From the NCBI GenBank assembly GCA_016187035.1, contig JACPKL010000008.1:35990-99989 (forward strand): 64,000 nt of DNA, read 5' to 3'. A program made the position numbers and the translations under genes. Positions 2,532 to 41,403 of this stretch are shown one piece after another (within the stretch, counting starts at the first letter, position 1; the number at the start of each line of letters is the position of its first letter). Under the pieces are notes generated by a model that saw only the letters and a program-made list of their open reading frames with translations, had not been told where the DNA came from and made no database searches. This DNA comes from Candidatus Daviesbacteria bacterium (GTDB lineage: Bacteria; Patescibacteriota; Microgenomatia; Daviesbacterales; UBA10151).

Positions 2532-3782
2532 ATGACTATTGGTTTTGACGGGTCAAGGGCTTTTGGACAAAATAAGCAAAGCTCTTCCTGGAATGAGCAA
2601 AGCTCTTCCTGGAATGAGCAAAGCTCTTCCTGGAATGAGCAAAGCTCTTCCTGGAATAAAACAGGAACAGAAAATTATTCTTATCAGCTGTTAAAAGCAT
2701 TGGCAAAAATTGACAATAAGAATAGCTATATTGTTTATTTAAGACCTGATGTGGTTATTCCTGGTTTTTCTTCTGTCGTTCCGAACGTAGTTATGTTCGC
2801 TCGCAATGACCAGGAGGATTGGCCGGAAAATTTCCAATTTAGGGTTATTCCCTGGCCCAGGTTTTGGACCCAGGGAGGCCTAGCTTTGCAGACTTTTAAA
2901 GACAAGTTGGATGTGCTATTTATTCCTTCCCATACCTTGCCTTTAATCAGGAAAAGAGGGCTTAAGACTATGATTACAGTACATGATTTAGGATCAGAGT
3001 ATCTGCCATCAATGCACCAAATTAAGCAGCGGTTATATTTGTCTTTTATGCAAAAATACCAGCTTAAAACTGCTAGCAAGATAATTGCAGTATCAAAGGC
3101 TACCAAACTAGATCTAATTAACAAAATAGGTATCAAGTCAGATAAAATAACAGTTGTTTATGAAGGATATGATGAAAAAAGATTTAAGATTCAAGATTTA
3201 AGATTTAAGAATGATATAAAAGTTAATAGTTTGAGATACTTTTTGTTTGTAGGGACAGTACAACCAAGGAAGAATTTGGAAAGGGTAATAAGAGCTTTCT
3301 CAACTCACCTCGAAGGTGAAAAAATGCAGTTACACCTTCGAGGTGGATTGAAGCTGCTGATTGCTGGTTCCAAGGGTTGGTTATCTGATGAAATATATAA
3401 ACTCCCTAAAAAACTGGGAATAGAGGATAAAGTCAAGTTTTTAGGCTATGTGCCTGACGAAAAGCTGGCTTATCTTTATAAAGGAGCTATAGCTTTGGTT
3501 TTTCCCTCTCTTTTTGAAGGATTTGGTTTGCCTATTCTGGAAGCCCAAGCTTGTAGTTGCCCGGTGATTACCTCAAACCTCTCATCCATGCCTGAAGTGG
3601 CAGGTAAAGGAGCAATTTTAGTGAATCCGTATTCTGTAGATGATATAGTAAGGGGGATGGTACAAGTTCAAAGTTCAAAGTTCAAAGTTCAAAGTTTGAT
3701 AAAAGCAGGGCTTCAGAATGTTAAAAGATTTAGCTGGGAAAAGGCAGCGAGGGAAACATTGAAAGTGCTATCGTCATCCTGA
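2532..3782 (+). CDS. Glycosyltransferase family 4 (GT-B, GT1-type C-terminal domain)
   Basis: FPSLFEGFGLPILEAQACSCPVITSNLSSMPEVAG (E-x7-E region). N-terminus MTIGFDGSRAF is typical of GT4. Carries several in-frame repeat insertions. Confidence 0.85.
   Translation: MTIGFDGSRAFGQNKQSSSWNEQSSSWNEQSSSWNEQSSSWNKTGTENYSYQLLKALAKIDNKNSYIVYLRPDVVIPGFSSVVPNVVMFARNDQEDWPENFQFRVIPWPRFWTQGGLALQTFKDKLDVLFIPSHTLPLIRKRGLKTMITVHDLGSEYLPSMHQIKQRLYLSFMQKYQLKTASKIIAVSKATKLDLINKIGIKSDKITVVYEGYDEKRFKIQDLRFKNDIKVNSLRYFLFVGTVQPRKNLERVIRAFSTHLEGEKMQLHLRGGLKLLIAGSKGWLSDEIYKLPKKLGIEDKVKFLGYVPDEKLAYLYKGAIALVFPSLFEGFGLPILEAQACSCPVITSNLSSMPEVAGKGAILVNPYSVDDIVRGMVQVQSSKFKVQSLIKAGLQNVKRFSWEKAARETLKVLSSS
2576..2659 (+). 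repeat. Tandem repeat, 21 bp x 4 (gcaaagctcttcctggaatga)
   Basis: Three identical units and a fourth with one mismatch. Encodes (QSSSWNE)x4 near the GT4 N-terminus. Confidence 0.95.
3179..3213 (+). repeat. Heptanucleotide-period array (aagattt family), in frame in GT4
   Basis: aagattt aagattc aagattt aagattt aagaatg. Translated KRFKIQDLRFKND. Confidence 0.85.
3306..3345 (+). repeat. Perfect hairpin element (13-bp stem, 14-nt loop), in frame in GT4
   Basis: cacctcgaaggtg (3306-3318) and caccttcgaggtg (3333-3345) are exact reverse complements. Translated HLEGEKMQLHLRG. A second copy lies at 59238-59307. Confidence 0.9.
3663..3696 (+). repeat. Heptanucleotide-period array (caaagtt), in frame in GT4
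   Basis: caagtt followed by caaagtt x4. Translated VQVQSSKFKVQS. Confidence 0.9.
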
Positions 3783-3887: not shown

Positions 3888-4661
3888 ATGAAGAAGGATG
3901 TTCTTGGAATCAAAATTGATGATGTTAATATTAACCAAGCTGTGGAAGTAGTATTTGGGTGGTTGAAAGAGGGAGGTAGGCGCTACATTGTTACTCCTAA
4001 TCCTGAGATAGTGGTGATGGCTCAAAAAGACCAAGAACTTAAAAATATTTTGAATAATGCAGATCTGGTAATTCCTGATGGGGTTGGTTTAAAAATAGCA
4101 ACTGATATAGTTTGTAATACTCCAGGAATAGACTTAATGGAAGCATTAATAAAATTAAGCAATGGAAAAGGCTTTACAACAGCCTTTTTAGGAGGCAAAG
4201 AAGGAGTAGCAGAAAAAGCAGCTGAGTGCTTACTGCGGAAGTATCCAAACCTTAAAATCTCATTCACTGGTTCTGGTGGTGAAATAAATGAGAATGGAGA
4301 GTTAATAGGAGAAGATTTAAGATTTAAGATTTATGATTTAAGAGATAAAAACGTTCATAAATCGTTAATCGTTAATCGTAAATCTCTGCCGAAGGCAGAT
4401 CTGCTCTTTATAGGTTTTGGTCCTCCAAAACAGGAAAAATGGATTGCTAAGAATTTAAATAAACTGCCTGTGAAGATAGCTATGGTTGTAGGGGGATCAT
4501 TAGATTATTTGTCTGGCCAAGTGCCAAGAGCTCCTAAATTTATCAGAAGCTTAGGATTGGAATGGCTATTTAGGCTAATAATTCAGCCCTGGAGGATCAG
4601 AAGACAGCTTGCGTTGCTCAAATATCTTTGGTTAATTTGGACAATGGATGGTGGAAAATAG
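3888..4661 (+). CDS. WecB/TagA/CpsF-family glycosyltransferase (GT26)
   Basis: VTPNPEIVVMAQKD, IPDGVGL, FIGFGPPKQEKWI, GGSLDYLSGQVPRAPKFIRSLGLEWLFRLIIQPWRIRR. Confidence 0.85.
   Translation: MKKDVLGIKIDDVNINQAVEVVFGWLKEGGRRYIVTPNPEIVVMAQKDQELKNILNNADLVIPDGVGLKIATDIVCNTPGIDLMEALIKLSNGKGFTTAFLGGKEGVAEKAAECLLRKYPNLKISFTGSGGEINENGELIGEDLRFKIYDLRDKNVHKSLIVNRKSLPKADLLFIGFGPPKQEKWIAKNLNKLPVKIAMVVGGSLDYLSGQVPRAPKFIRSLGLEWLFRLIIQPWRIRRQLALLKYLWLIWTMDGGK
4311..4385 (+). repeat. 75-nt heptamer-based imperfect hairpin, in frame in GT26 gene
   Basis: Left arm is aagattt-type units (4312-4346). Right arm is aaatcgt/taatcgt units (4356-4385), roughly the reverse complement. This is exactly 25 codons (EDLRFKIYDLRDKNVHKSLIVNRKS). 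Confidence 0.8.
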
Positions 4662-4787
4662 AAGATAGTGGTGGAAGGTAGATAATAGATGATAGATAAT
4701 TTCTATCTTCTAAGAGCGAAGCTCGCAAGCTTTGCTTATATTCTATTTTCAAAAATACCATCTTCCATATTCTATCATCTATCGTCT
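4651..4787. repeat. Composite purine-rich / pyrimidine-rich repeat block with central gagcgaagc core
   Basis: gaaaatagaa / ttctattttc and gatgatagata / tctatcatctatc occur as reverse complements. Centre is taagagcgaagctcgcaagctttgcttatattct. Intergenic, overlapping the GT26 stop. Confidence 0.75.
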
Positions 4788-4798
4788 AATATAATAAT

Positions 4799-5302
4799 AT
4801 GATAATCACAAAAAGCGCTAAAGATTTAAAACCAGTGTTAATGAAAGGAGCAAAATCAGGAGTTAAAAACCCCTATTATTTGATTGAAGATCAGGATCAA
4901 GTCATATTTGTAGTTGCTCCTGGGAGAAATGGCATAGAGTTTAATAAAACTTTAGGTTATTTTAGCTTTTTTCCTAATATGCAAACCTATCAGTGTTTAT
5001 ATGGACAAGGGGTAATTGTCATGCAGAGAAATGATGATTTTGGAGCAAAAGAGTTTAAAGTGGTAACTATAAATTCTAATAAACAAATTTTAGTGCCAGC
5101 AGGCTGGGGAATGTGCTTAATTAATACTGGAACTAACTTGTTAGTAGTAATAAGGAGCAGCAGGTTTGATGATAAGTATCTGGATACTAAACCAATTTTA
5201 GAAAAAAAGGGTTTTGCCTATTATATTGTGGAGAAAAAGGGTGAGATCAGTTTTGAGGAAAACCCTAATTATTCCATGCACCCACAGATTACTACAGAGT
5301 GA
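4799..5302 (+). CDS. Cupin-fold protein (cupin-type glucose-6-phosphate-isomerase-like; function uncertain)
   Basis: 167 aa. The beta-rich pattern GIEFNKTLGYF...YGQGVIVMQ...VPAGWGMCLINTG resembles cupin PGI-like proteins, but the metal-binding His residues are not obvious. Confidence 0.35.
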   Translation: MIITKSAKDLKPVLMKGAKSGVKNPYYLIEDQDQVIFVVAPGRNGIEFNKTLGYFSFFPNMQTYQCLYGQGVIVMQRNDDFGAKEFKVVTINSNKQILVPAGWGMCLINTGTNLLVVIRSSRFDDKYLDTKPILEKKGFAYYIVEKKGEISFEENPNYSMHPQITTE

Positions 5303-6055: not shown

Positions 6056-6147
6056 TGTCATTCTGAACGAAGTGAAGAATCTCTAGACTTGTTCTAAATA
6101 CATCTGAAATGAATTCAGAGATCCTTCGCTAATCGCTCAGGATGACG
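6056..6147. repeat. TGTCAT...ATGACG palindromic (MITE-like) element, 92 nt
   Basis: Left arm tgtcattctgaacgaagtgaagaatctct. Right arm agagatccttcgctaatcgctcaggatgacg. Fills the rplJ-rplL spacer and overlaps the last codons and stop of rplJ. Confidence 0.85.
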
Positions 6148-6679
6148 CTTGCGTGTCACCCCCCTTCATCTTTTGAATTTCTGAAAGTGCATATACTAAA
6201 TTTCTTAAGTTAGCTTGCAACACTCCCACAATTCCTTGCAAAGGAGCAACTAATACTCCTACTGTTTTAGCTCTTAGCTCCGGTTTTGAAGGAAGGGTGG
6301 AAAGTTGGATAATCTTTGCTTCATCCAGGCTGTCTTTACCTAAAAATCCTGATTTTACTTTACCTAAGCTGGCATCTTTTAATATTTTAACTAATATTTT
6401 AATAGGGGAGATCTCATCATCATAAGCAAAAAGTGCGGCAGTAGGACCTTCTAGATTGGAAGTTGGAAGTTGGAGGCTAGAAGCTGGAAGGGCACGCTCT
6501 AAAAGAGTATTCTTAGTAATACTAAATTCTGCAGATTGTTCCCTGAGTTTATTTCTTAGATCAGAGAGTTGCTTCATGGTCAGACCTTTGTAGTCTGTAA
6601 AAACCACTGCTTTAGCTTTAGCTAATTTTTCCTGTAATTTAATAACCAAATCTTGCTTTTGTTGTCTTGTTTTAGCCAT
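6137..6679 (-). CDS. rplJ: 50S ribosomal protein L10
   Basis: MAKTRQQKQDLVIKLQEKLAKAKAVVFTDYKGLTMKQLSDLRNKLRE. I place the start at ATG 6679. The 33 upstream codons of the track ORF look like non-coding leader. Confidence 0.85.
   Translation of the reverse strand: MAKTRQQKQDLVIKLQEKLAKAKAVVFTDYKGLTMKQLSDLRNKLREQSAEFSITKNTLLERALPASSLQLPTSNLEGPTAALFAYDDEISPIKILVKILKDASLGKVKSGFLGKDSLDEAKIIQLSTLPSKPELRAKTVGVLVAPLQGIVGVLQANLRNLVYALSEIQKMKGGDTQASS
6456..6490. repeat. Heptanucleotide-period array (ttggaag family), in frame in rplJ
   Basis: ttggaag ttggaag ttggagg ctagaag ctggaag on + strand. Read on the minus strand as PASSLQLPTSN. Confidence 0.8.
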
Positions 6680-6752
6680 ATTTGCCTTGGTTGGATTTAT
6701 GCTTCGACTGGTTCGACTACGCTCACCACCAGTCCGCTCAGCACCAACTGTC

Positions 6753-7832
6753 TTAAGCTGAATTATTATTATAACCAATTAACCACCAGAAAGCAAGCAG
6801 GTTAACCACACTTAAAGGATTAAACAGCATAGCAGTCATCAGCCCTAACAAAGCAGTTGTTTCCAGCAGTTTTTTATGCTGGATAAAGCGCTGAAAAGCT
6901 AAATATATCAGTAAAGATATTGAAACAACCCCTACCAGTCCTCCCTGGATCCAAAAATCCAGTAAAAAATTATGGGCACTGTCTACTATCTGATATTGAA
7001 CATTATTATTTAGAGAAACTGCCTCTTTGTGGATTATCTTTTGAATACTGCCAAATCCATGCCCAATAAAAGGAGATTTAAGACCTGCCATCAAAGCTGT
7101 CTGCCAAATTTCAGCACGGTTTTCAAACAGTCTTGGGGTGGCTGCAACAGGTAAGGTCAGACTAAGCATCATTAGTAAAATGCATATTATTGTTGCTTTA
7201 AGAGTTGAGGTTTTGACTCTGATGAGAATAATAAATACTACCTCAATTATTAGACCAATTAATCCAGCCCTGGAGCCTGATAATAAGATCAAAGTGCAGG
7301 TGGCAACCAGTGTCAGAAAACGTATTAATCTTCTGCAATGAGACCAGGTAAAAGGGAAGATAAACAAGGCAGTGGCAGCCAGGGCGTTTGGTTCACCCAG
7401 TGTGCCAAAAGCCCGTCCCTCAAAACTTCCTAAAATTACTGTTCCCATAAAAAGAAAAAGTAAAGACAATTGATACAGAAATTTAGGTATTTGATCTAGT
7501 TGGATATTTTTGGTCATTAGGGAGAAAAGTAATAAAGACATAAACAAAAATTGCCCCTGCAATCTAAAAGCATTACCAAAAAAAGCTCCAGCGCTCTTAA
7601 AAAGCAAGCTGGTATCCAAACTTAAAATAAACAAAATGCCTACAAAAATAATTTGAGGATTGATGAATTGTTTAAGCTGAGGTTTTTTAAAATTAATTAT
7701 TTTTAGGAAAAGCAGGGTATTAATAACTGCCTCTGTTAGAATCACCTTAGGAGTTTCAAAAGGGGAAATGCCGATGGGAATAACTACCAGGGGTAAAAAG
7801 AATAATAAAAAGACAACAAGGTATGCAGCCAC
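6753..7832 (-). CDS. O-antigen ligase / Wzy-like polytopic membrane protein
   Basis: About 10 TM segments. LGEPNALAATALFIFPF and LLSGSRAGLIGLII are typical of the O-antigen ligase family. Confidence 0.65.
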   Translation of the reverse strand: MAAYLVVFLLFFLPLVVIPIGISPFETPKVILTEAVINTLLFLKIINFKKPQLKQFINPQIIFVGILFILSLDTSLLFKSAGAFFGNAFRLQGQFLFMSLLLFSLMTKNIQLDQIPKFLYQLSLLFLFMGTVILGSFEGRAFGTLGEPNALAATALFIFPFTWSHCRRLIRFLTLVATCTLILLSGSRAGLIGLIIEVVFIILIRVKTSTLKATIICILLMMLSLTLPVAATPRLFENRAEIWQTALMAGLKSPFIGHGFGSIQKIIHKEAVSLNNNVQYQIVDSAHNFLLDFWIQGGLVGVVSISLLIYLAFQRFIQHKKLLETTALLGLMTAMLFNPLSVVNLLAFWWLIGYNNNSA

Positions 7833-12018: not shown

Positions 12019-13002
12019 ATGATAAAAATCCTTGTTAACGCATTAATAGGCATAATTCTGATTGTAGCCTGGTCGCGTTTTGTAAACCTTGATCAGATTC
12101 TTTCTACCCTTAAGAAAGTTAACTTAGTTTATTTGTTGCCTGTACTTGGTTTTTTATTCTTTTCTTCCATATTGAGAGCTGTCAGGTTTAAAGTATTTTT
12201 AGCAGAAATTAAAAAAATCAGCCTACAGGACCTGATATTTTTAAATGGGGCAGCTCAGATGCTTAATTTTTTTATCCCTATCAGAGCAGGGGAAATAGCC
12301 AAAGGAGTTTATTTAAATACTCAATATAGCCTAAATTTAGGCAAGTCTATTATCTGGGTTTTTATAGACAGGTTTGTGGATTTTTTGGTGTTATTGCTTT
12401 TGGCTGCTGCACTTTTGTTGGTAGTTCCGACCGCCCTTAGTATAACAATTATAAAAATTATAACCATTATACTAATCACAGTTTTACTAGCCGCTTATTT
12501 AGCAGTTTTTCAACTTAGTTCTGCCAGAAAAATCATTGTTTTTTTGAGGCCTCTCTTAATATTTAATCTTATTAAGATATATTTTGATAAAGTTACATCA
12601 TTCATTTTAGACTCTTTTTCCATTTTAGACAGGCATCCTAAGGATTTAGCTTTAATGGTGATAATTACTGTATTAGCTTATTTTACTGATGCTGCTGTCT
12701 GGTATTTTACTTTTTTATCATTAGGGGTTTCCCAGTCCTTTATAAAAATGTATCTGGGGCAGATGCTGTCTGCTTTGACTTATCTGATTCCTGCAGCCCC
12801 GGGATATGTGGGTTCAGCAGAAGCATCAGGATTATTAATACTTTCAGGAGTTTTTAATATAGAGGCCAATTTAGCCTCAGCCATGATAGTTTTATTCCAT
12901 ATAGTTTCAGCTGTTTTTATTTTAATGTTTGGCTTAATTTCTATATTCAGCCTCAAGATCAATCTTGGGGAAATATTAAAAAGAGCCTTAAATAGAAGCT
13001 AG
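12019..13002 (+). CDS. Lysylphosphatidylglycerol-synthase-TM-like (flippase-like) membrane protein
   Basis: 8 or so TM helices. N-terminal LRAVRFKVFL motif is typical of this family. Confidence 0.55.
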   Translation: MIKILVNALIGIILIVAWSRFVNLDQILSTLKKVNLVYLLPVLGFLFFSSILRAVRFKVFLAEIKKISLQDLIFLNGAAQMLNFFIPIRAGEIAKGVYLNTQYSLNLGKSIIWVFIDRFVDFLVLLLLAAALLLVVPTALSITIIKIITIILITVLLAAYLAVFQLSSARKIIVFLRPLLIFNLIKIYFDKVTSFILDSFSILDRHPKDLALMVIITVLAYFTDAAVWYFTFLSLGVSQSFIKMYLGQMLSALTYLIPAAPGYVGSAEASGLLILSGVFNIEANLASAMIVLFHIVSAVFILMFGLISIFSLKINLGEILKRALNRS

Positions 13003-13899
13003 ATCCAGCTTTATTGATGGGCCCATGGTGGGTGAAAGGGAGACTTTTTTAATCCTGGATTTGCCTATGGTTTGGAGAAGAGTTTTAATATTAGCTGATA
13101 ACTCCTCAGTGGGTTGATTAAGTTTACCTAAACCAAGATGGATAACAGGAGCTTTGGCTTCTGTTTTATATTCTGAGCGAAGCGAAGAATTCAAGCTCTG
13201 CTTATATTCTGTTTTACCAGCCTGGAAAGACTCTACTGCCTTTTTTAAATCAGTCACAATAGTACCGCTCTTAGGATTTGGCATGAGGCCCTTAGGTCCT
13301 AAAATCCGGGCAACTTTAGCCAGTTTAGGCATACCAGCAGGTGTTGTCACAATTAAATCAAAATCTATTTTGCCTTTACTGATATTTTCAATAGTCTCAT
13401 CGTCACCCTCATAAGCTAAGATCCTTAATTTCTTGCCTGAGGCATAGGGGAGGGAAACCAGTCCCCGTAGCCCGGTTTGGATAGTTAAAATATGGGCTTC
13501 CAAAGTGCCTGTAAAGGCTGAGAAAGAATGTTTTTTTACCAGATCTACAGCCTCATTCAGAGGGTAGGTTTTACTTCTATCTAAGTCTTTAGTAGCTTGC
13601 TGGTATTTTTTAGATCTGGGCTTGGATTTAGCAGGTCTCCTGTTATCAGGTTTCTGTTTTCGGTTTTCGGATGTAAGTTTATCAGTTCTCTGTTTGTCTG
13701 TTTCTGAAACTGATAAACTGGTAACAGATTTACCTTTATCTGACAACTGAGAACTGAGAACCGATGACTGATCTTCTCCTTCCAGCTCTGCTTTGAGTTT
13801 TTCCACCAGCTCATCTGTCCTGCCTAGTTTTTTGGCAGGTTTTTTTGGTTCTTTTTGTTGGATGGAATCATCCATTATTTTTGTTTTAGTTTTACCCAT
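12988..13899 (-). CDS. rplA: 50S ribosomal protein L1 with about 95-aa N-terminal extension and an internal 12-aa insertion
   Basis: Core motifs [33 protein letters not shown]...[11 protein letters not shown] overlaps the rplK stop (ATGGGTAA), as in coupled rplKA. Confidence 0.9.
13166..13211. repeat. 36-nt element insertion bounded by 10-bp direct repeat TTATATTCTG, in frame in rplA
   Basis: TTATATTCTG at 13166-13175 and 13202-13211. Between them lies agcgaagcgaagaattcaagctctgc. Duplicates the EYK codons of L1. Confidence 0.85.
13746..13773. repeat. Heptanucleotide-period array (actgaga), in frame in rplA N-terminal extension
   Basis: actgaga actgaga accgatg actgatc. The neighbouring sequence 13649-13670 has ttttcgg units. 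Confidence 0.8.
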
Positions 13900-14317
13900 T
13901 TATCTTCACCCCCATGCTTCTGGCTGTGCCTTCCACAATCTTCATGGCAGCCTCAACATCTTTAGTGTTTAAATCTGGCAGTTTAGCCTCAGCAATGCTT
14001 CTGACCTGTTCTTTAGTCAAGCTTCCAACAACATTCTTTAAAGCTGTGCCAGAGCCTTTTTCTAAATTAAGCATCTTTTTAATCATCTCAGCCATGGGCG
14101 GTTCTTTGGTAATAAAAGAAAAAGTCCTGTCTTCATAAACAGTAATGACCACTGGTAAAATATTGCCCTGTTTGTCTTTGGTTTTTTCATTAAAAGCTTT
14201 GACAAACTCCATAATAGGCAGGCCGTGAGAACCCAATGCAGGACCAACAGGAGGAGCAGCAGTAGCTGTAGCTGCTGGAATGTTTAATTTTATATAAGTT
14301 TTTACTTTTTTAGCCAT
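13892..14317 (-). CDS. rplK: 50S ribosomal protein L11
   Basis: [27 protein letters not shown]...[17 protein letters not shown]. Confidence 0.95.
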
Positions 14318-14351
14318 AATCTGATTTTGATATTTTACCTGACTCCAAACG

Positions 14352-14420
14352 AGATTTAAGATTTAGGAATTAAGATTCAAGATTTTTATTCTTAAATCAT
14401 AAATCTTATCTCTTAAATCT
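14352..14420. repeat. aagattt-family imperfect hairpin in the nusG-rplK spacer
   Basis: agatttaaga (14352-14361) is the exact reverse complement of tcttaaatct (14411-14420). The interior is made of aagattt-like units and their complements. Confidence 0.8.
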
Positions 14421-15108
14421 AGATTTTTTGTACCTGCAGAAAATCCAGTTCAACAGGTGTTTCCCTGCCAAATATAGAAACCAGAACCTTGATCTTTCCT
14501 CTTTCTTCATCCACATGATCTACTTTACCAATAAAGTCTGCAAACGGGCCGTCAACAATTTTAACAGTATCAGAAACAGTAAAAACCTGTTTAAAAGTGG
14601 GAGCTTCCTCTTTGGTGAATTTAACAATAGTAGCTACTTCAGCATCAGAAATTGGGGTAGGTTTATTTCCCATACCCACAAAAGAAGTGACTCCGGGGGT
14701 GGTCCGTACAGCCAGCCAGGATGCTTCATCCAAAATCATTTTTACCAGAATATATCCGGGAAAAATCTTTTCTTTAACTTCTATCTTTTTACCGCTCCTG
14801 ATTTCAATTTTATCCTGCATTGGCACCAGGACTTCCAGGATTTTTTCTTCCAGATGTTCTGATTCAATTCTCTGCTTTAAAGTAGCAGCCACCTTATTTT
14901 CATGGCCTGAATAGGTATGGACTACATACCATTTAGCATTGGGGTTAGAGGATTTGACGGTAGATGGTGGAAGATTGATGGTAGAATCTTGAGGATTGAT
15001 GATAGAAGGTGGATCTTCTTCTTTCGATTTTCCATCTTCTATTTTCAAAGTACTATCTTCTACTTTTCTATCATCTATTGTCTGTTCTTCTGTTTTATTA
15101 TTGTCCAT
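14419..15108 (-). CDS. nusG: Transcription termination/antitermination factor NusG with about 55-aa N-terminal extension
   Basis: WYVVHTYSGHENKV (NGN domain). KOW region VKIVDGPFADFIGKVDHVDEERGKIKVLVSIFGRETPVEL. Confidence 0.9.
   Translation of the reverse strand: MDNNKTEEQTIDDRKVEDSTLKIEDGKSKEEDPPSIINPQDSTINLPPSTVKSSNPNAKWYVVHTYSGHENKVAATLKQRIESEHLEEKILEVLVPMQDKIEIRSGKKIEVKEKIFPGYILVKMILDEASWLAVRTTPGVTSFVGMGNKPTPISDAEVATIVKFTKEEAPTFKQVFTVSDTVKIVDGPFADFIGKVDHVDEERGKIKVLVSIFGRETPVELDFLQVQKI
14959..15083. repeat. gatagaag-family imperfect hairpin, in frame in the nusG 5' extension
   Basis: The left arm ggtagatggtggaagattgatgg...gatgatagaaggtgga is collinear with the reverse complement of the right arm tccatcttctattttcaaag...tctatcatctattgtct. 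The right arm closely matches spacer 4741-4787. Confidence 0.75.
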
Positions 15109-37291: not shown

Positions 37292-37504
37292 ATGTTAATA
37301 TGTTCAAGATGCGGTAAGGGAAAAAATACCCTCTCATTTTCCCGTCATAAAAAGGGTTCCTCTGGAGCTGGAGGAGTGTGGGCTTTGCGCGCCCCAATCC
37401 ACAAAAGAGTCCAAAAACCCAACCTCCATATTTATAATGGAAAAAAATACTGCACTAAATGTTTAAGAATAGTTAAAAAAGACGTGTCCGCAATAACTGC
37501 TTAA
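37292..37504 (+). CDS. rpmB: 50S ribosomal protein L28
   Basis: CSRCGKG...SFSRHKKGSSGAGGVWALRAPIHKRVQKPNLH pattern of bL28. Confidence 0.65.
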   Translation: MLICSRCGKGKNTLSFSRHKKGSSGAGGVWALRAPIHKRVQKPNLHIYNGKKYCTKCLRIVKKDVSAITA

Positions 37505-38405
37505 GAGGAAAATCAGGGTAGCCGTTTAAGAAGTCTTTGAAGGATATTGGTTTTTTCCCCTCCATTTGCAATAAATGTTCATCCTTCCTGTCATTCTGAG
37601 CGATTAGCGAAGAATCTTCCATGGATCGGGAAGATTCCTCACTCTGTTTTGGATAACGTATGGGTGGCAAAAATTTAATAATTTTGTTATTCCATTTTGT
37701 CCATACCCCTGGCCAGGGATAATAAGCGCGGATCTCTCTGTCTAATTTTTCAGGTTGGGGAGGATTATTAATATTAAAATAACCATCTTCTTTAACAAAG
37801 TGTTTAGTGTAAGTAGCCTTGGAATGATCTTGGGGGGTAGGATTAATTGATCCTTCCAAGTATTGTTTTATTACCTTTAAAATTAGTTGTCCTCCTAGTT
37901 CATTTAGCTTAGTCAATAAAGTATCTCTAGTTTCTTTGGGAGTCAGTATATATTCCTGTTGGGCTAGTATATCTCCGCTATCTACCTCATCAGTTATTTG
38001 AATGATAGTAACTCCTGAAATCTTGTCTCCATTAAGAATAGCAGTAGGAGCAGGGGAAGGACCTCTATATTTGGGTAAAAGTGAATGATGGATATTTAAT
38101 GGAGCATATTTTGGTAAGGTTAGCAAGTCTTTAGACAGGATTAATCCATAATCTTCCACTACCAAAAAATCACTCTTCAGCTTGGCAATTTTATTTATTA
38201 CTTCCTTGTCTAATTTACTTGTTTCCAAAGTTGGAATATTTAATTCACTGGCTAATTTTTTAACAGGACTATCAGGAATTGTGATAACTAACGATACAGG
38301 AAAGATTGAATAGACAATCTTTAATCCAATAATTGAGTACTTTGTATTCCCAAAAAAAACTAGTTTAAGTTTTGAGTTTTGATTTGAAGTTTTAACATTT
38401 GACAT
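37473..38405 (-). CDS. fmt: Methionyl-tRNA formyltransferase
   Basis: VFFGNT..., NIHHSLLPKYRGPSPAPTAIL, C-terminal LQMEGKKPISFKDFLNGY. Position is downstream of def. Confidence 0.85.
   Translation of the reverse strand: MSNVKTSNQNSKLKLVFFGNTKYSIIGLKIVYSIFPVSLVITIPDSPVKKLASELNIPTLETSKLDKEVINKIAKLKSDFLVVEDYGLILSKDLLTLPKYAPLNIHHSLLPKYRGPSPAPTAILNGDKISGVTIIQITDEVDSGDILAQQEYILTPKETRDTLLTKLNELGGQLILKVIKQYLEGSINPTPQDHSKATYTKHFVKEDGYFNINNPPQPEKLDREIRAYYPWPGVWTKWNNKIIKFLPPIRYPKQSEESSRSMEDSSLIAQNDRKDEHLLQMEGKKPISFKDFLNGYPDFPLKQLLRTRLF
37589..37646. repeat. TGTCAT-type palindromic element, in frame in the fmt C-terminal domain
   Basis: tgtcattctgagcgattagcgaagaatcttcc-atggatc-gggaagattcctcactctg. The arm nearly matches the reverse complement of the right arm of the 6056-6147 element. 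Translated (minus) as about QSEESSRSMEDSSLIAQNDRK. Confidence 0.8.
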
Positions 38406-39097: not shown

Positions 39098-39367
39098 CTA
39101 GGGTCTTCTATTATTTTGAAGTTGATGTAACCGCCACATAAATATTTTGGCTTTGGATTTGGCAGAAGTGTATCCTTTGGTAAAACTCAAAGTTTCCTCC
39201 AAGAGCCTTCTATCCAGCTGTTTGGCCAGTTTAATATATAGGGAATAACGCTTAGTATCTCCTAAGCTTTCTGCTAAGTATATCCCATATTCCTGAAATT
39301 CATGTGCTATATTCTTGGGTCTATCTTTAAACTTAGCATCAGCTATAGCTGTTTTGATGGACTTCAT
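39098..39367 (-). CDS. Hypothetical 89-aa protein
   Basis: ATGA-type 4-nt overlap with the upstream gene. No motif recognised. Confidence 0.45.
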   Translation of the reverse strand: MKSIKTAIADAKFKDRPKNIAHEFQEYGIYLAESLGDTKRYSLYIKLAKQLDRRLLEETLSFTKGYTSAKSKAKIFMWRLHQLQNNRRP

Positions 39368-41403
39368 GGACTTCCTGATTTTGTTGCCTCTTTTAATTGT
39401 TCTAATGCTTCCAGATAATCTGGTTTTAAGTTTAAGGTAGTTTTTAGATTTTCAATTTCTTCATCCTTTTTACCGATACTTTCTAAAATTAAAGCCTTAT
39501 TATAATAAAGCTTAGGATCAGTTGGGGCCAGCTTGATAGCCATATCTAAAGCTTCCAAAGTTTTGTTAACATACTTTTTATCTAAACTAGCTAATTCATA
39601 ATATGTCCTAATAGCTGTTCTCCAAAAAGAAACGTTTTTAGGGCTAATTGTTAAACTGATTTTTAATTGATTTAAAGCCTCATCTTCTAAAGCAGCAGAA
39701 AGAGAAGCGTCAGTTTCTTTTAAAGCAGCAGCAGCCGCAGCTGCAGAATAGCTAAGTTCAGAACGGTAGAACGGCTCTCCTTTATTTAAGTCAGAAGCCA
39801 TGCTTAATAAATTATATGCTTTGCCAGGATTACCTAAATCTGAGGCTTTTTGACCTTGATTGAACAGTGTATCAGCATACCAAAGCTGGAAGATAGAATA
39901 TAGAAGATAGAGGGTGGAAAAAATCACAATCCCTTTAGCTATATTAGTATAAATTTTCCGACGGTAGATGATAGAAAATAGATGATGGAATTTTGAAGCT
40001 GGAAGATGGAAGGTAGAAATAGAATCAGTAGCAACAAAAACCAAAGCAGGAAAAAGGTAAAAAAAGACAGCTATGATAACTACTGAGAATAGGAAGAAGT
40101 TATAGATAAGATAGGAGATATATGAGGCAAGAATACTATAAAGTAGCAGATTTTTGGTTCCTTTGCGTTTTAGTATAAGCGAAGCTTGATACTTCGTATT
40201 AACAATTATAAATTTTATAAAAATTATAATAATTATCAAATAAGTTCCAAATCCTACAATGCCTGTGGTAGCTAGATAATTCAAATACTCATTATGGGCT
40301 TTATTGTATAAAAAATCCCACTCAGAGGTTAAGTTATGCTCCTTTGGCCTGAATTGATAATATGAATAAGCAAATGTCTCCACTCCTGAGCCAAACAAGG
40401 GATAATGTTTAAAAATATCCAGGGCTCCATGCCAGACAATAAACCTGATTTGTCCTGATTCTGTGCCGCCATTTTCCAGTTGTGTACCTACAGAAGGATT
40501 GGAAGGTAAGCTGATGGTAGGTCTTGCTGGAGCAGCAAATTTAGAGACTAACCTGAAAGAGGTTAAAGCAGACCCAAAAAGAACATTAATAACCAGAAAA
40601 CTTAATATTACTATAAGTAATGATTTCAACTTAACTATATTTACGATTCCACCCTTAGGGTGGAGCCTTAGAATATAGAGACCGATAAGAGTGATAAATC
40701 CAACTATTAGGCCTAATGTTGGACCTCTTGAGTAGGTAAAGGTAAAAGCCAGGTAATAAATAACAAGTAGTAAGTAGTAAGTAGTAAGTAGTAAGGGGGA
40801 AGGAGCAGATAAGAAGAAATACAGGGCAGGGAAGATCAACATGGCAAGGTAGGCTGCCATCCAGTTTGGCTGGCCTAAGGTGGCAAAAACTCTTTCATAA
40901 ACTTTTTGCACCCAGCAGTCAGCATTAAATTCTCCTCTTAAAATTACACAGGAAGGTGATACCTGAAAGTGTTCTAAAATTCCCCAGACAGCAATAATCA
41001 GACCTGAAGCTAAGCCTATTTTTAAAAGGGGCTTAATTTTATCTGCTGTAACATTAGATACAAAGGCCCAGTAAAGCAAAAGATAACAGATTATGGATAA
41101 GAGGCCTCCATTGGAGCGTGAATAATAACCCCAGATAGAAGTATGAAGGTCTATTGAGAAAATAGTTGATAAAATATTAGCCCCTAAAAACAGCAGTAAT
41201 GGAATGTCCAAGGGTGTACGATTTAAGATTAAAGATTTATGATTTATGATTTTAAGAAGCCAACTCCCTACTATAACTACAGTCAATCCATAAGTTAAAA
41301 TCATCTTGTTATATTCAAAAAGCTCATAATTTAAAGAGGTCCAAAAAAGAGGAGTTAGAAAAAAGAGAGTATAAAAAGAATAGGAAATAATTTTATCAAG
41401 CAT
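39364..41403 (-). CDS. O-antigen-ligase-like polytopic membrane protein with C-terminal TPR repeats
   Basis: YSRGPTLGLIVGFITL (Wzy_C-like) and NEYLNYLATTGIVG. The C-terminal 150 aa are TPR-like (AYNLLSMASDLNKGEPFY..., YYNKALILESIGKKDEEI). Confidence 0.65.
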   Translation of the reverse strand: MLDKIISYSFYTLFFLTPLFWTSLNYELFEYNKMILTYGLTVVIVGSWLLKIINHKSLILNRTPLDIPLLLFLGANILSTIFSIDLHTSIWGYYSRSNGGLLSIICYLLLYWAFVSNVTADKIKPLLKIGLASGLIIAVWGILEHFQVSPSCVILRGEFNADCWVQKVYERVFATLGQPNWMAAYLAMLIFPALYFFLSAPSPLLLTTYYLLLVIYYLAFTFTYSRGPTLGLIVGFITLIGLYILRLHPKGGIVNIVKLKSLLIVILSFLVINVLFGSALTSFRLVSKFAAPARPTISLPSNPSVGTQLENGGTESGQIRFIVWHGALDIFKHYPLFGSGVETFAYSYYQFRPKEHNLTSEWDFLYNKAHNEYLNYLATTGIVGFGTYLIIIIIFIKFIIVNTKYQASLILKRKGTKNLLLYSILASYISYLIYNFFLFSVVIIAVFFYLFPALVFVATDSISTFHLPASKFHHLFSIIYRRKIYTNIAKGIVIFSTLYLLYSIFQLWYADTLFNQGQKASDLGNPGKAYNLLSMASDLNKGEPFYRSELSYSAAAAAAALKETDASLSAALEDEALNQLKISLTISPKNVSFWRTAIRTYYELASLDKKYVNKTLEALDMAIKLAPTDPKLYYNKALILESIGKKDEEIENLKTTLNLKPDYLEALEQLKEATKSGSP
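39884..40025. repeat. gatagaag/ggaagat-family repeat blocks, in frame in a TM region
   Basis: agctggaagatagaatatagaagatagagggtgg (39884-39917) and ggtagatgatagaaaatagatgatgg...ggaagatggaaggtagaaatagaat (39963-40025). The antisense strand is read as FSTLYLLYSIFQLW / DSISTFHLPASKFHHLFSIIY. Confidence 0.75.
40767..40794. repeat. Heptanucleotide array gtagtaa x4, in frame in a TM region
   Basis: Four exact gtagtaa units, read on the minus strand as LLLTTYYLL. Confidence 0.9.
41221..41255. repeat. aagattt-family heptamer array, in frame
   Basis: atttaag attaaag atttatg atttatg attttaa, read on the minus strand as LKIINHKSLILN. Confidence 0.85.

Follow-up and report, generated by a model that had tools for sequence, protein, structure and literature searches.

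RPEs are small, non-autonomous dispersed repeats, many of which have inserted without a frameshift into functional genes of unrelated kinds, whose products thereby gain a conserved peptide; permissive positions of the protein are believed to accommodate them (PMC10969869). MITEs are also non-autonomous and dispersed, are flanked by short direct repeats and occasionally give in-frame fusions (PMC10969869). A GCGAAGC-type loop has been described in some enterobacterial REPs, such as that of Citrobacter (GTAGGCCcGgTAAGCGaaGCGCC...) (PMC2817692). PARCELs are described as repeats that code in both orientations and spread among proteins (PMC2996958).

Selfish repeats that invade housekeeping proteins in frame are mainly seen as a Rickettsia peculiarity. 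We find such repeats here in the ultra-small, streamlined CPR bacteria, in the window, a 64,000-nucleotide stretch of Candidatus Daviesbacteria DNA. A 36-nt insert in rplA, the gene for ribosomal protein L1, is very probably a single unit of a tiny repeat, non-autonomous and dispersed, that occurs in Daviesbacteria and their relatives. The family resembles RPEs in being dispersed and in lying in frame in L1, LysRS, TPR, GT2 and LysM proteins, an ATPase and a phosphodiesterase-like protein. RPEs, however, are ∼100–150 bp long, clearly palindromic and confined to Rickettsia, whereas the 36-nt unit (24 nt in a short variant) is weakly self-complementary, TTATA-bounded and found in CPR/Daviesbacteria, with no sequence relationship between the two. 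The element works like an RPE but does not belong to the RPEs, and at just 12 codons it is about four times shorter.

Other described systems are less close. With REPs and REPINs the family shares a size of 20–40 nt, a hairpin with a variable stem and a conserved short 5′ motif, and the TGTCAT palindromes of the window resemble REPIN-type inverted doublets. REPs lie outside genes, begin with GT(A/G)G, are restricted to a species or genus and are linked to a RAYT (Y1/HUH transposase) gene; the 36-nt family in contrast ends in TTATA (the palindromes in GTCA), its copies are often intragenic, and its hairpin module is found across phyla. MITEs usually measure 50–500 bp, can be traced to a recognisable parent IS and have well-defined terminal inverted repeats, whereas the 36-nt element appears to have none that are clear, and its flanking repeat is TTATA at every copy rather than copy-specific. 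PARCELs are described as intragenic tandem repeat coding sequences of surface proteins (PMC2996958), whereas the 36-nt element makes single 12-codon insertions in housekeeping proteins.

Results

A 36-nt insert in the gene for ribosomal protein L1

The insert-bearing reading frame encodes a genuine L1. Its product matches Pfam PF00687 (E = 7.5e-24, 84.8 bits vs a cut-off of 32.2) and L1 chains in the PDB (down to E = 1e-31), is 100% identical to P0001 ('50S ribosomal protein L1 [Candidatus Daviesbacteria bacterium]') and retains the invariant columns of the Daviesbacteria L1 alignment. Relative to L1 orthologs the insert is exactly 36 nt long, in frame and free of stops in the rplA frame. The 10-mer TTATATTCTG flanks AGCGAAGCGAAGAATTCAAGCTCTGC (13176–13201) on both sides, at 13166–13175 and 13202–13211; it has three copies in the window, two of them 36 nt apart, vs 0.41 expected from shuffling. 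TTATA stands at both ends of the insert (13166–13170 and 13202–13206), and the 10-nt repeat makes the exact position of its junction ambiguous. The right copy reads CAG AAT ATA A in reverse complement, within ..ACA GAA TAT AAA.., and orthologs without the insert have ACA GAA TAT AAA ACA GAA at this position. A first-pass annotation of this DNA had given the coordinates and sequences of repeat and core, the in-frame length of 12 codons and the literal duplication of the EYK codons, seen as a repeated GAA TAT AA; all of these held on re-check. Its description of rplA as essential did not, as L1 is not strictly essential and many CPR genomes have lost it (bioRxiv 10.1101/2021.01.31.429008).

Features of the insert-bearing locus and of related sequences in the window
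Feature	Position	Strand	Description
rplA (uL1)	12988–13899	minus	303 codons from first ATG (NCBI: 295 aa); ORF intact, carries the insert
Inserted 36-nt unit	13166–13201	plus (element sense), antisense to rplA	TTATATTCT GAGCGAAGCGA AGAAT TCAAGCTCTGC; encodes 12 residues
Hairpin module	13170–13190	plus	stem ATTCT (13170–13174) / AGAAT (13186–13190), cap GAGCGAAGCGA (13175–13185)
3′ box TCAAGCTCTGC	13191–13201	plus	family consensus TCAAGCTYTGC (alignment A2); recurs at 4725–4735
Second TTATATTCTG copy	13202–13211	plus	terminal TTATA of element or target, plus native L1 codons
Short-variant family copy	4703–4744	plus	TATCTTCTA A GAGCGAAGCTC GCAAGCTTTGC TTATATTCT; spacer between ORFs 3888–4661 and 4799–5302
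TGTCAT palindrome	6056–6147	plus	two inverted arms with hairpin module; fills rplJ-rplL spacer, supplies rplJ stop codon
TGTCAT palindrome	37589–37646	plus	in frame inside fmt (37473–38405, minus strand); fold z = −3.5

Whether the inserted residues are lineage-specific had been asked in the first-pass annotation, and they are specific to this genome: none of 119 other L1 orthologs carries them. The nearest L1 is ∼80% identical in the core, L1 genes share 73–82% nucleotide identity among themselves, and a neighbor-joining tree of 120 L1 cores is star-like. Solved L1 chains, from B. subtilis and others, show a 13-residue gap exactly at the insert position, and in an AlphaFold model residues 229–248 have pLDDT values <50 and lie between a helix (218–226) and a strand (252–259). 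Assuming from the open frame that it is translated, the insert most likely forms a disordered surface loop without a function of its own. Nine other L1 orthologs (of the 120; Daviesbacteria) have inserts of 18–24 nt at the same codon, which add six to eight residues (EHSSKQVY, EQSSKQVY, ERSSKMIY, EQGSKILY or GFKQVY). These contain GAGC(G/A)AAGCTC as in the short variant of the family, and their 3′ half has no family match. In other Daviesbacteria this codon is a hot spot for insertions.

A dispersed repeat family with a covarying stem

The units share one anatomy: a TTATA is followed by a covarying 5-bp stem that encloses the invariant cap GAGCGAAGCGA, then by the box TCAAGCTYTGC and a second TTATA. 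In the L1 insert the cap includes the GCGAAGC mini-hairpin motif. A metagenome scan with one pattern, GAGCGAAGCN{2,14}AAGCTYTGCTTATA, returned 35 loci, representing 30 distinct copies, vs <1 expected, so that the further copies of the core sought since the first-pass annotation do exist, at least 35-fold above chance. The 3′ box is part of the search pattern, and its conservation among the matches is by construction. The left ATA (columns 8–10 of alignment A2) lies outside the pattern and is invariant in 15/15 aligned copies, most of which have the full left TTATA, while the 5′ end may read YATA. A copy within the gene for a TPR membrane protein of Daviesbacteria (L138/L141) matches window 13165–13207 at 43/43 nt. 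The short variant of 4703–4744 is also present in L135, L139 and L143. Tandem arrays occur in both lengths: L136 has a period of exactly 36 (3.2 copies, 94% matches) and L133 one of 24 nt. The unit lengths of 36 and 24 nt are always whole codons.

Across the 15 aligned copies 98.1% of stem cells are paired, vs 88.5% in shuffles. Three pairs account for 11 double-sided changes, a number matched by 0/500 shuffles, and slid controls reach at most 50% paired. The hairpin at 13170–13190 is the minimum-free-energy structure of the insert as DNA, yet with standard parameters it is no stabler than shuffled sequence (z = 0.04 as RNA, 0.16 as DNA). Structural support for the stem comes from the covariation in these 15 copies. 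The first-pass annotation had proposed the RPE-like insertion of a small non-autonomous element with the frame kept, and the insertion itself is largely right; the element is a poor palindrome with a fold z of ∼0.

The window has two family copies in all, one long and one short. The right part of the insert, CAAGCTCTGCTTATATTCT, recurs in the non-coding short copy at 4726–4744 with one mismatch (18/19, as first reported; 0.04 matches expected), and the match extends to 24 nt with two mismatches (blastn-short E = 8e-4). We considered region 4700–4750 as an rplA pseudogene fragment and rejected this, as the similarity ends at the element and the region is built of other local repeats. Searches for a published name of the 36-nt family found none, literature searches on its sequence strings giving unrelated primer or vector matches; Rfam at gathering thresholds had no match in the window, and no candidates came from a word search of proteins for the peptides that the element encodes (YKQSL.. 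/ YNLSEAK..).

TTATA ends account for much of the direct repeat

Direct repeats flank all copies, and every family copy is bounded by TTATA at both ends. The ATTCT in the left TTATATTCTG copy is half of the element's own stem. At the filled site of P0121 only TTATAT is duplicated, which indicates that the left 9-mer was brought by the element. The flanking repeat is just 6 nt in L126 and L137, and in L1, P0140 and P0191 it runs 4–5 nt past TTATA into the stem half. The 10-bp repeat therefore consists of the TTATA ends of the element plus a TTCTG match between its 5′ stem half and native L1, and is not a clean or simple target-site duplication; the earlier caveat that it may be element-internal is largely borne out. 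A fixed 5-bp duplication of TTATA is possible.

In-frame copies in other proteins and empty sites in close relatives

About one-quarter of the distinct copies lie inside ORFs. In a class I LysRS the in-frame copy encodes the peptide YKQSLKSSLRSNY, in the context GKY[KQSLKSSLRSNY]KPY, giving 11 residues more than in PDB 1irx. A TPR membrane protein has 11 additional residues after FYIL, and further in-frame copies are found in a GT2 glycosyltransferase, a LysM protein, an ATPase and a phosphodiesterase-like protein. In-frame insertion of the kind known from RPEs, which the first-pass annotation had seen in L1, thus extends to other conserved proteins.

The TPR protein offers filled and empty versions of one site. 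Eight of 120 homologs carry the element there, all of them Daviesbacteria wherever named, with the DNA reading TTATATTTT-GAGCGAAGCGA-AAAAT-...-TTATATTTTA. Their nearest relatives lack it; P0193, for example, is empty and 86% identical to P0140. The recurrent alternation of filled and empty states at a given site could stem from recombination or precise loss instead of repeated insertion. Close relatives differ in whether a given site is filled, which bears on alignment trimming and phylogenomics; inserts of this kind in marker genes, even those for ribosomal proteins, should not be read as vertical characters. The family also offers a concrete source for the numerous short insertions and extensions of CPR proteins that lack an explanation, and L1, LysRS and Fmt form a natural set of tolerated 12-residue insertions.

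A hairpin module shared with TGTCAT palindromes

The core of the L1 insert had been equated with the arm of the TGTCAT palindromes in the window. TTCTGAGCGAAGCGAAGAAT matches 6061–6080 with two mismatches (0.02 matches expected) and 37593–37615 with a 2-nt indel. The insert holds the 21-mer ATTCTGAGCGAAGCGAAGAAT, identical to the arm core (stem plus cap) of the GTCATTCTGAGCGAAGCGAAGAATC palindromes, and this hairpin module is exact across many bacterial phyla. In nearly all of 127 matches in other genomes the 20-mer of these palindromes is preceded by GTCA and followed by C, and in many the arm faces an inverted partner across a spacer of variable length. In the L1 copy TATA precedes the 20-mer and T follows it, a partner arm is absent, and the tail is TCAAGCTCTGC-TTATA. 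The common 21-nt hairpin module thus stands, and the rest of the equation does not: the L1 insert is a member of a separate family, characterised by its 36-nt unit and its TTATA termini, and is not a fragment of a TGTCAT palindrome.

The palindrome at 6056–6147 folds as RNA with −35.7 kcal/mol (z = −5.2). At the position of the other, within fmt, the closest Fmt relatives lack ∼27 residues. An Rfam search on the palindromes gave generic hairpin or miRNA matches alone, well below threshold, and for the GTCATTCTGAGCGAAGCGAAGAATC palindromes across phyla we found no published name or description.

Discussion

Arrival and survival of the insert

We propose that a copy of the element was pasted at TTATA(T) in the Tyr-Lys codons of rplA (GAA TAT AAA), antisense to the gene. 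In this orientation one frame alone is stop-free, giving YKQSL.SSLRS.Y, and in the sense orientation the consensus likewise has one open frame alone, giving YNLSEAKISSFAY. The site is a helix-strand loop of L1 where homologs have gaps. Given a 12-codon unit, a single stop-free frame and a gap-tolerant loop, selection would keep such copies and remove those in other frames or places. For mobilisation our preferred guess is a trans-acting enzyme, for instance HUH/RAYT-like, that would recognise the DNA hairpin; insertion would then occur next to TTATA, presumably helped by extra homology between the 5′ end of the element and the target.

The element copy may instead have arrived by ectopic gene conversion or template switching, guided by the 9–10 nt of identity (TTATATTCT), rather than by transposition. 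The repeats of L1, P0140 and P0191, which extend beyond TTATA into the stem half, mean that the element variant matches its target in these three cases, as conversion would have it; the same sites are also occupied in scattered lineages, and arrays of whole units are products expected of unequal recombination. Against this, the P0121/L138 element has the same stem (ATTCT) at a site that matches TTATAT alone, the repeats of L126 and L137 stop at 6 nt, and copies sit in many unrelated genes with TTATA as the sole common sequence, which points to a short specific target rather than long homology. We therefore regard conversion as unlikely, though well worth keeping in view. Slippage is a far poorer account. 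If the 36 nt between the TTATATTCTG copies had been duplicated locally in tandem and had then diverged, this would explain both the flanking direct repeat and an insert as long as the repeat spacing, but outside the 10-mer the insert is unlike the preceding or following 36 nt of rplA and matches element copies elsewhere, a contradiction that leaves it with next to no probability.

Inserts occupy this very position in nine of the 120 orthologs, and the first 12 nt are alike (TAT AAG CAG AGC T vs TAT GAG CAA AGC T), so the 12 residues might be read as an old lineage-specific L1 loop, homologous to the six- to eight-residue inserts and similar to the repeat by convergence or chance. This is very unlikely and already contradicted by the evidence, namely a match of 43/43 nt with a copy that lies in an unrelated gene vs 73–82% identity among L1 genes, the full element anatomy of the insert, the same peptide in a LysRS and the at least 35-fold enrichment of the family. 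The occurrence of the insert in a single genome, and the fact that repeats are a classic cause of misassembly, could further suggest an assembly or binning artefact, or an insert removed or bypassed at the RNA level and absent from the protein. An independent 1001-bp Logan contig (run SRR12113385) is, however, identical to window 12952–13952 with the insert present, which makes a misassembly specific to the MAG unlikely; the insert comprises exactly 12 codons with no stop in the frame of the gene, and equivalent in-frame inserts exist in other genes and assemblies. Artefact or bypass is highly improbable on these grounds.

Insertion of a mobile unit hence remains the reading we prefer, and it can be extended. 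In the extended form, which we consider possible but on the whole doubtful, the GAGCGAAGCGA units (36/24 nt) would be the smallest mobile DNA elements yet seen to colonise coding genes. They would re-insert in a homing-like, sequence-directed manner at TTATA(T)TYT, with the same loops struck repeatedly, and sites in L1, the TPR protein and Fmt (there by the related palindromes) would have been struck repeatedly in separate CPR lineages. An HUH-type enzyme may mobilise the units as hairpins of single-stranded DNA, and the shared hairpin module would tie them to a REP-like palindrome family spread across bacterial phyla.

Several candidates were set aside along the way. The pattern matches at L155 (an alcohol dehydrogenase) and L148 (57% GC) are probably due to chance or unrelated to the family, and a GCCGCT...GGAC group (L128, L131, L140, L156 and L158) has conserved flanks and may belong to another, larger repeat; the evidence draws on none of them. 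The element also contains an internal imperfect inverted pair, AGCGAAGC / GCTYTGCT, which is predicted as an alternative stem in some copies, such as L157. Its C/T polymorphism (alignment A2) breaks a pair and is uncompensated.

An in-frame repeat element in ribosomal protein L1

In this genome of Candidatus Daviesbacteria (CPR/Microgenomates; window GC content 37.7%), rplA lies downstream of secE-nusG-rplK, and its product matches Pfam Ribosomal_L1 (E = 7.5e-24). The first-pass annotation described a 36-nt insertion in this gene, and we could locate both copies of TTATATTCTG, flanking AGCGAAGCGAAGAATTCAAGCTCTGC, at the positions reported. Read in frame with L1, the 36 nt amount to 12 codons, GGT AAA ACA GAA TAT [AAG CAG AGC TTG AAT TCT TCG CTT CGC TCA GAA TAT] AAA ACA GAA. 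Two similarities reported for the insert were likewise reproduced: 13171-13190 matches 6061-6080 with 2 mismatches (0.02 such matches expected), and 13192-13210 matches 4726-4744 with 1 mismatch (0.04 expected), the latter extending to 24 nt (E = 8e-4). Run SRR12113385 also yields a Logan contig of 1001 bp that carries the insert and matches the window without a difference.

Coordinates of features in the window and in related loci (L-numbers, DNA loci outside the window)
Feature	Position	Strand	Content
rplA	12988-13899	minus	
36-nt insert	13166-13201		
Direct repeat	13166-13175; 13202-13211		TTATATTCTG
DNA of L1 N-terminal extension	13615-13899		
Short (24-nt-period) element copy	4703-4744		
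Possible decayed element copy	40170-40192		TATCAAGCTTCGCTTATA
Membrane-protein ORF	39364-41403	minus	
TGTCAT palindrome, rplJ-rplL spacer	6056-6147		
rplJ	6137-6778	minus	
TGTCAT palindrome in fmt	37589-37646		
In-frame palindrome segment of fmt	37560-37650		KFLPPIRYPKQSEESSRSMEDSSLIAQNDRKDEHLLQMEGKK
fmt	37473-38405	minus	
GA-rich family	14956-15013; 39960-40017; 4637-4700; 4752-4786		
Four tandem 21-nt units	2571-2654		AATGAGCAAAGCTCTTCCTGG
ORF with 21-nt units	2532-3782	plus	
7-nt-period repeats	3175-3217; 4308-4350; 14347-14425; 41214-41256		AGATTTAAGATTTAAGATT
23S_rRNA_IVP / bAvd-type gene	L005 2151-2717; L162 1045-1413; L164 3478-3825		
Element in phosphodiesterase-like protein	L126/L153		EFYNLSEAKISSFAYNQI
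Element in GT2 glycosyltransferase	L129		in-frame peptide
Element in LysM protein	L137		TTYNSSEARISSSAYTVV
Element in TPR membrane protein	L138/L141		in-frame peptide
Element in ATPase	L152		VCYNLSEAKISSSAYNLN
Element in class I lysyl-tRNA synthetase	L159	antisense	GKYKQSLKSSLRSNYKPY

When the best 120 L1 homologs among 5.8 billion database proteins were compared, the insert proved to be lineage-specific: the 12 residues occur only in the window's own protein (P0001), and 110 of the 120 contain GKTEYKTE.KAPVIH without an insert. Alignments of solved bacterial L1 chains show a 13-residue gap precisely at the insert point. No close relative with an empty L1 site was found in the databases searched, the nearest L1 being only ~80% identical in the core. 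AlphaFold modelling with 40 homologs gave pLDDT values below 50 for residues 229-248, which are located between helix 218-226 and strand 252-259, and the insert is thus predicted to form a floppy loop. We see no evidence for a function of the insert in L1. To call rplA an essential gene, as the first-pass annotation did, is too strong, because L1 is dispensable in some bacteria and has been lost in many CPR genomes (bioRxiv 10.1101/2021.01.31.429008).

The first ~95 codons of rplA encode a Lys/Ser-rich N-terminal extension of ~95 residues, which is missing from solved L1 structures and poorly conserved among Daviesbacteria; most of it is modelled with low confidence (pLDDT below 50 at residues 9-26, 41-57, and 59-83). 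Its DNA is built of short CTGA/GAAC-type repeats. Three related contigs have a four-helix-bundle gene of the 23S_rRNA_IVP / bAvd type at or up to ~1.2 kb downstream of rplA, directly adjoining it in two of them; there is no such gene at the corresponding position in the window.

Anatomy of the repeat family

In JGI metagenome contigs, the pattern GAGCGAAGCN{2,14}AAGCTYTGCTTATA matched 35 loci (<1 expected by chance) and yielded 30 distinct family copies, which share the anatomy TTATAATTT GAGCGAAGCGA AAATT TCAAGCTYTGC TTATA. The 5 bases on each side of the cap vary among copies yet remain complementary (AATTT/AAATT, AATTC/GAATT, ATTCT/AGAAT, ATTTT/AAAAT, and AGTTT/GAACT). In an alignment of 15 copies, paired cells make up 98.1% and 11 double-sided changes affect 3 stem pairs, a level of covariation matched by 0 of 500 shuffles; pairing falls to 50% or less when the partner is slid by 1-3 columns. 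The cap contains GCGAAGC, a classic hyper-stable DNA mini-hairpin (PMC13037366). The insert hairpin has no significant stability under standard energy parameters. A stretch of 43 bases (13165-13207) is identical in L138 and L141. L136 is a head-to-tail array of 3.2 units that repeat every 36 nt exactly, and L133 is a tandem array of a shorter variant with a 24-nt period, of which the window also contains a copy. A possible decayed copy, which agrees with the 3' box plus TTATA at 16 of 18 positions, is in frame in the membrane-protein ORF and translates as NTKYQASLILKR.

Several metagenome copies lie within long open frames of AT-rich contigs and translate as 12-residue inserts. The peptide in lysyl-tRNA synthetase nearly equals that in L1, and this enzyme is 11 residues longer than P. 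horikoshii LysRS at the insert point. Inspection of the consensus reveals only one stop-free frame per orientation, with stops in the others arising from TTATAA and ATTTGA. That no other copies persist in genes is explained by a length of whole codons together with the single open frame.

Repeatedly occupied sites

In the TPR family, whose members are Daviesbacteria wherever a name is given, 8 of 120 homologs carry the element at the same FYIL/S site. The nearest relatives of each filled protein are empty (P0193, for instance, lacks the insert at 86% identity to the filled P0140). In L1, an 18-24-nt insert is found at the identical Tyr-Lys codon boundary in 9 of 120 orthologs, reading TAT [GAG CGA AGC TCT AAA ATG ATT TAT] AAA in P0037; the rplA loci of other Daviesbacteria behind this comparison are L002, L005, L161, L162, and L163. 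These L1s are scattered among empty relatives, ~82% identical at the nucleotide level. Their inserts carry GAGC(G/A)AAGCTC, the short-variant cap with the mini-hairpin, on the coding strand, and the 3' half has no family match. The 36-nt insert of the window has the opposite orientation and is identical to an element copy elsewhere, from which we read it as a separate, more recent event at the same L1 site. Taken together, the insert is shown to be an in-frame, lineage-specific copy of a dispersed family that has a covarying stem and has repeatedly occupied the same sites.

Junctions and possible mobilization

The first-pass annotation had cautioned that the direct repeat may be internal to the element, and this caveat was well placed. 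On the left, the copy (13166-13174) is part of the element and contributes ATTCT, the 5' strand of the covarying stem. An ATA at this end, which is outside the search pattern, is present in 15/15 long copies, most of them with the full TTATA. The right copy is native L1 sequence, orthologs having ACA GAA TAT AAA (reverse complement TTTATATTCTGT). TTATA is found on both sides of every copy, and repeat length ranges from 4 to 10 nt. Close homologs of the L138 TPR protein (P0121) have F-Y-I-K-S-E, and its filled site reads TAT ATT CTG AGC ... GCT / TAT ATC AAA. Here TTATAT alone is repeated, and thus the remainder of the left 9-mer was brought by the element. In the homologs P0140 and P0191, an ATTTT/AAAAT stem meets the native site TAT ATT TTA, yielding a 9-10-nt repeat, as in L1. 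The 10 bp repeated in rplA are therefore made up of the TTATA boundary and a further match of the element end to its target. Such a repeat is compatible either with insertion beside TTATA aided by further homology or with microhomology-driven conversion.

The element may be mobilized in trans by a hairpin-recognizing enzyme acting on single-stranded DNA, such as a HUH/RAYT-like protein; we offer this as a first guess, with low confidence, because the mini-hairpin is conserved and of DNA type and the boundary is always the same pentanucleotide. Among described elements, REPs come closest in architecture, some having GCGAAGC-type loops (PMC2817692), and Rickettsia palindromic elements (RPEs) come closest in behavior (PMC10969869). 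The insertion is real, and its original reading as an RPE-like in-frame element is supported, with the refinements described here. It extends the RPE type of in-frame selfish repeat to a new lineage, in a new and much smaller form.

Relation to the TGTCAT palindromes

The insert core had also been taken for an arm of the TGTCAT palindromes; the two do have a hairpin module in common, but the insert is not a palindrome fragment. The 20-mer TTCTGAGCGAAGCGAAGAAT occurs in more than 120 genome stretches from many phyla (L006-L125 among the matches listed, which include Nitrospirota, Acidobacteriota, Bacteroidota, Chloroflexota, Firmicutes, Cyanobacteria, and CPR). Among these matches it is almost always found as GTCA-20mer-C, often with an inverted copy beyond a spacer of variable length, a type to which both window palindromes belong. 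In contrast, the L1 insert has TATA and T in place of GTCA and C, lacks the partner arm, and carries a TCAAGCTCTGC-TTATA tail. The L1 element represents a sister family of the palindromes. Rfam contains no family for either, and a literature search by sequence string returned no paper describing them.

The fmt palindrome is in frame in methionyl-tRNA formyltransferase. The closest CPR Fmt proteins have KFLPG-xx-LQVEGKK and ~27 residues fewer at this site, and in two other Fmt proteins, P0254 and P0242, this position holds other inserts derived from palindromes (RLRGNDDG in P0242). The other palindrome, 92 nt long, fills the rplJ-rplL spacer (RNA fold z = -5.2), and the last codons and TGA stop of rplJ lie inside its arm.

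Other repeats in the window

A second, GA-rich family has a period of ~14 nt, with two sites 78% identical over 58 nt. It is translated in the NusG N-terminal extension (PPSIINPQDSTINLPPSTVKS) and in the membrane-protein ORF (TFHLPASKFHHLFSIIYRR), and it flanks the short element copy. The tandem 21-nt units encode NEQSSSW x4 at the N-terminus of a glycosyltransferase-like protein, where they separate the conserved motifs GFDGSRAF and KTG; the unit includes GAGCAAAGCTCT, a 12-mer also present in the 24-nt insert of the L1 homolog P0070. Repeats with a 7-nt period recur between genes; some of them form inverted pairs, including one between rplK and nusG.
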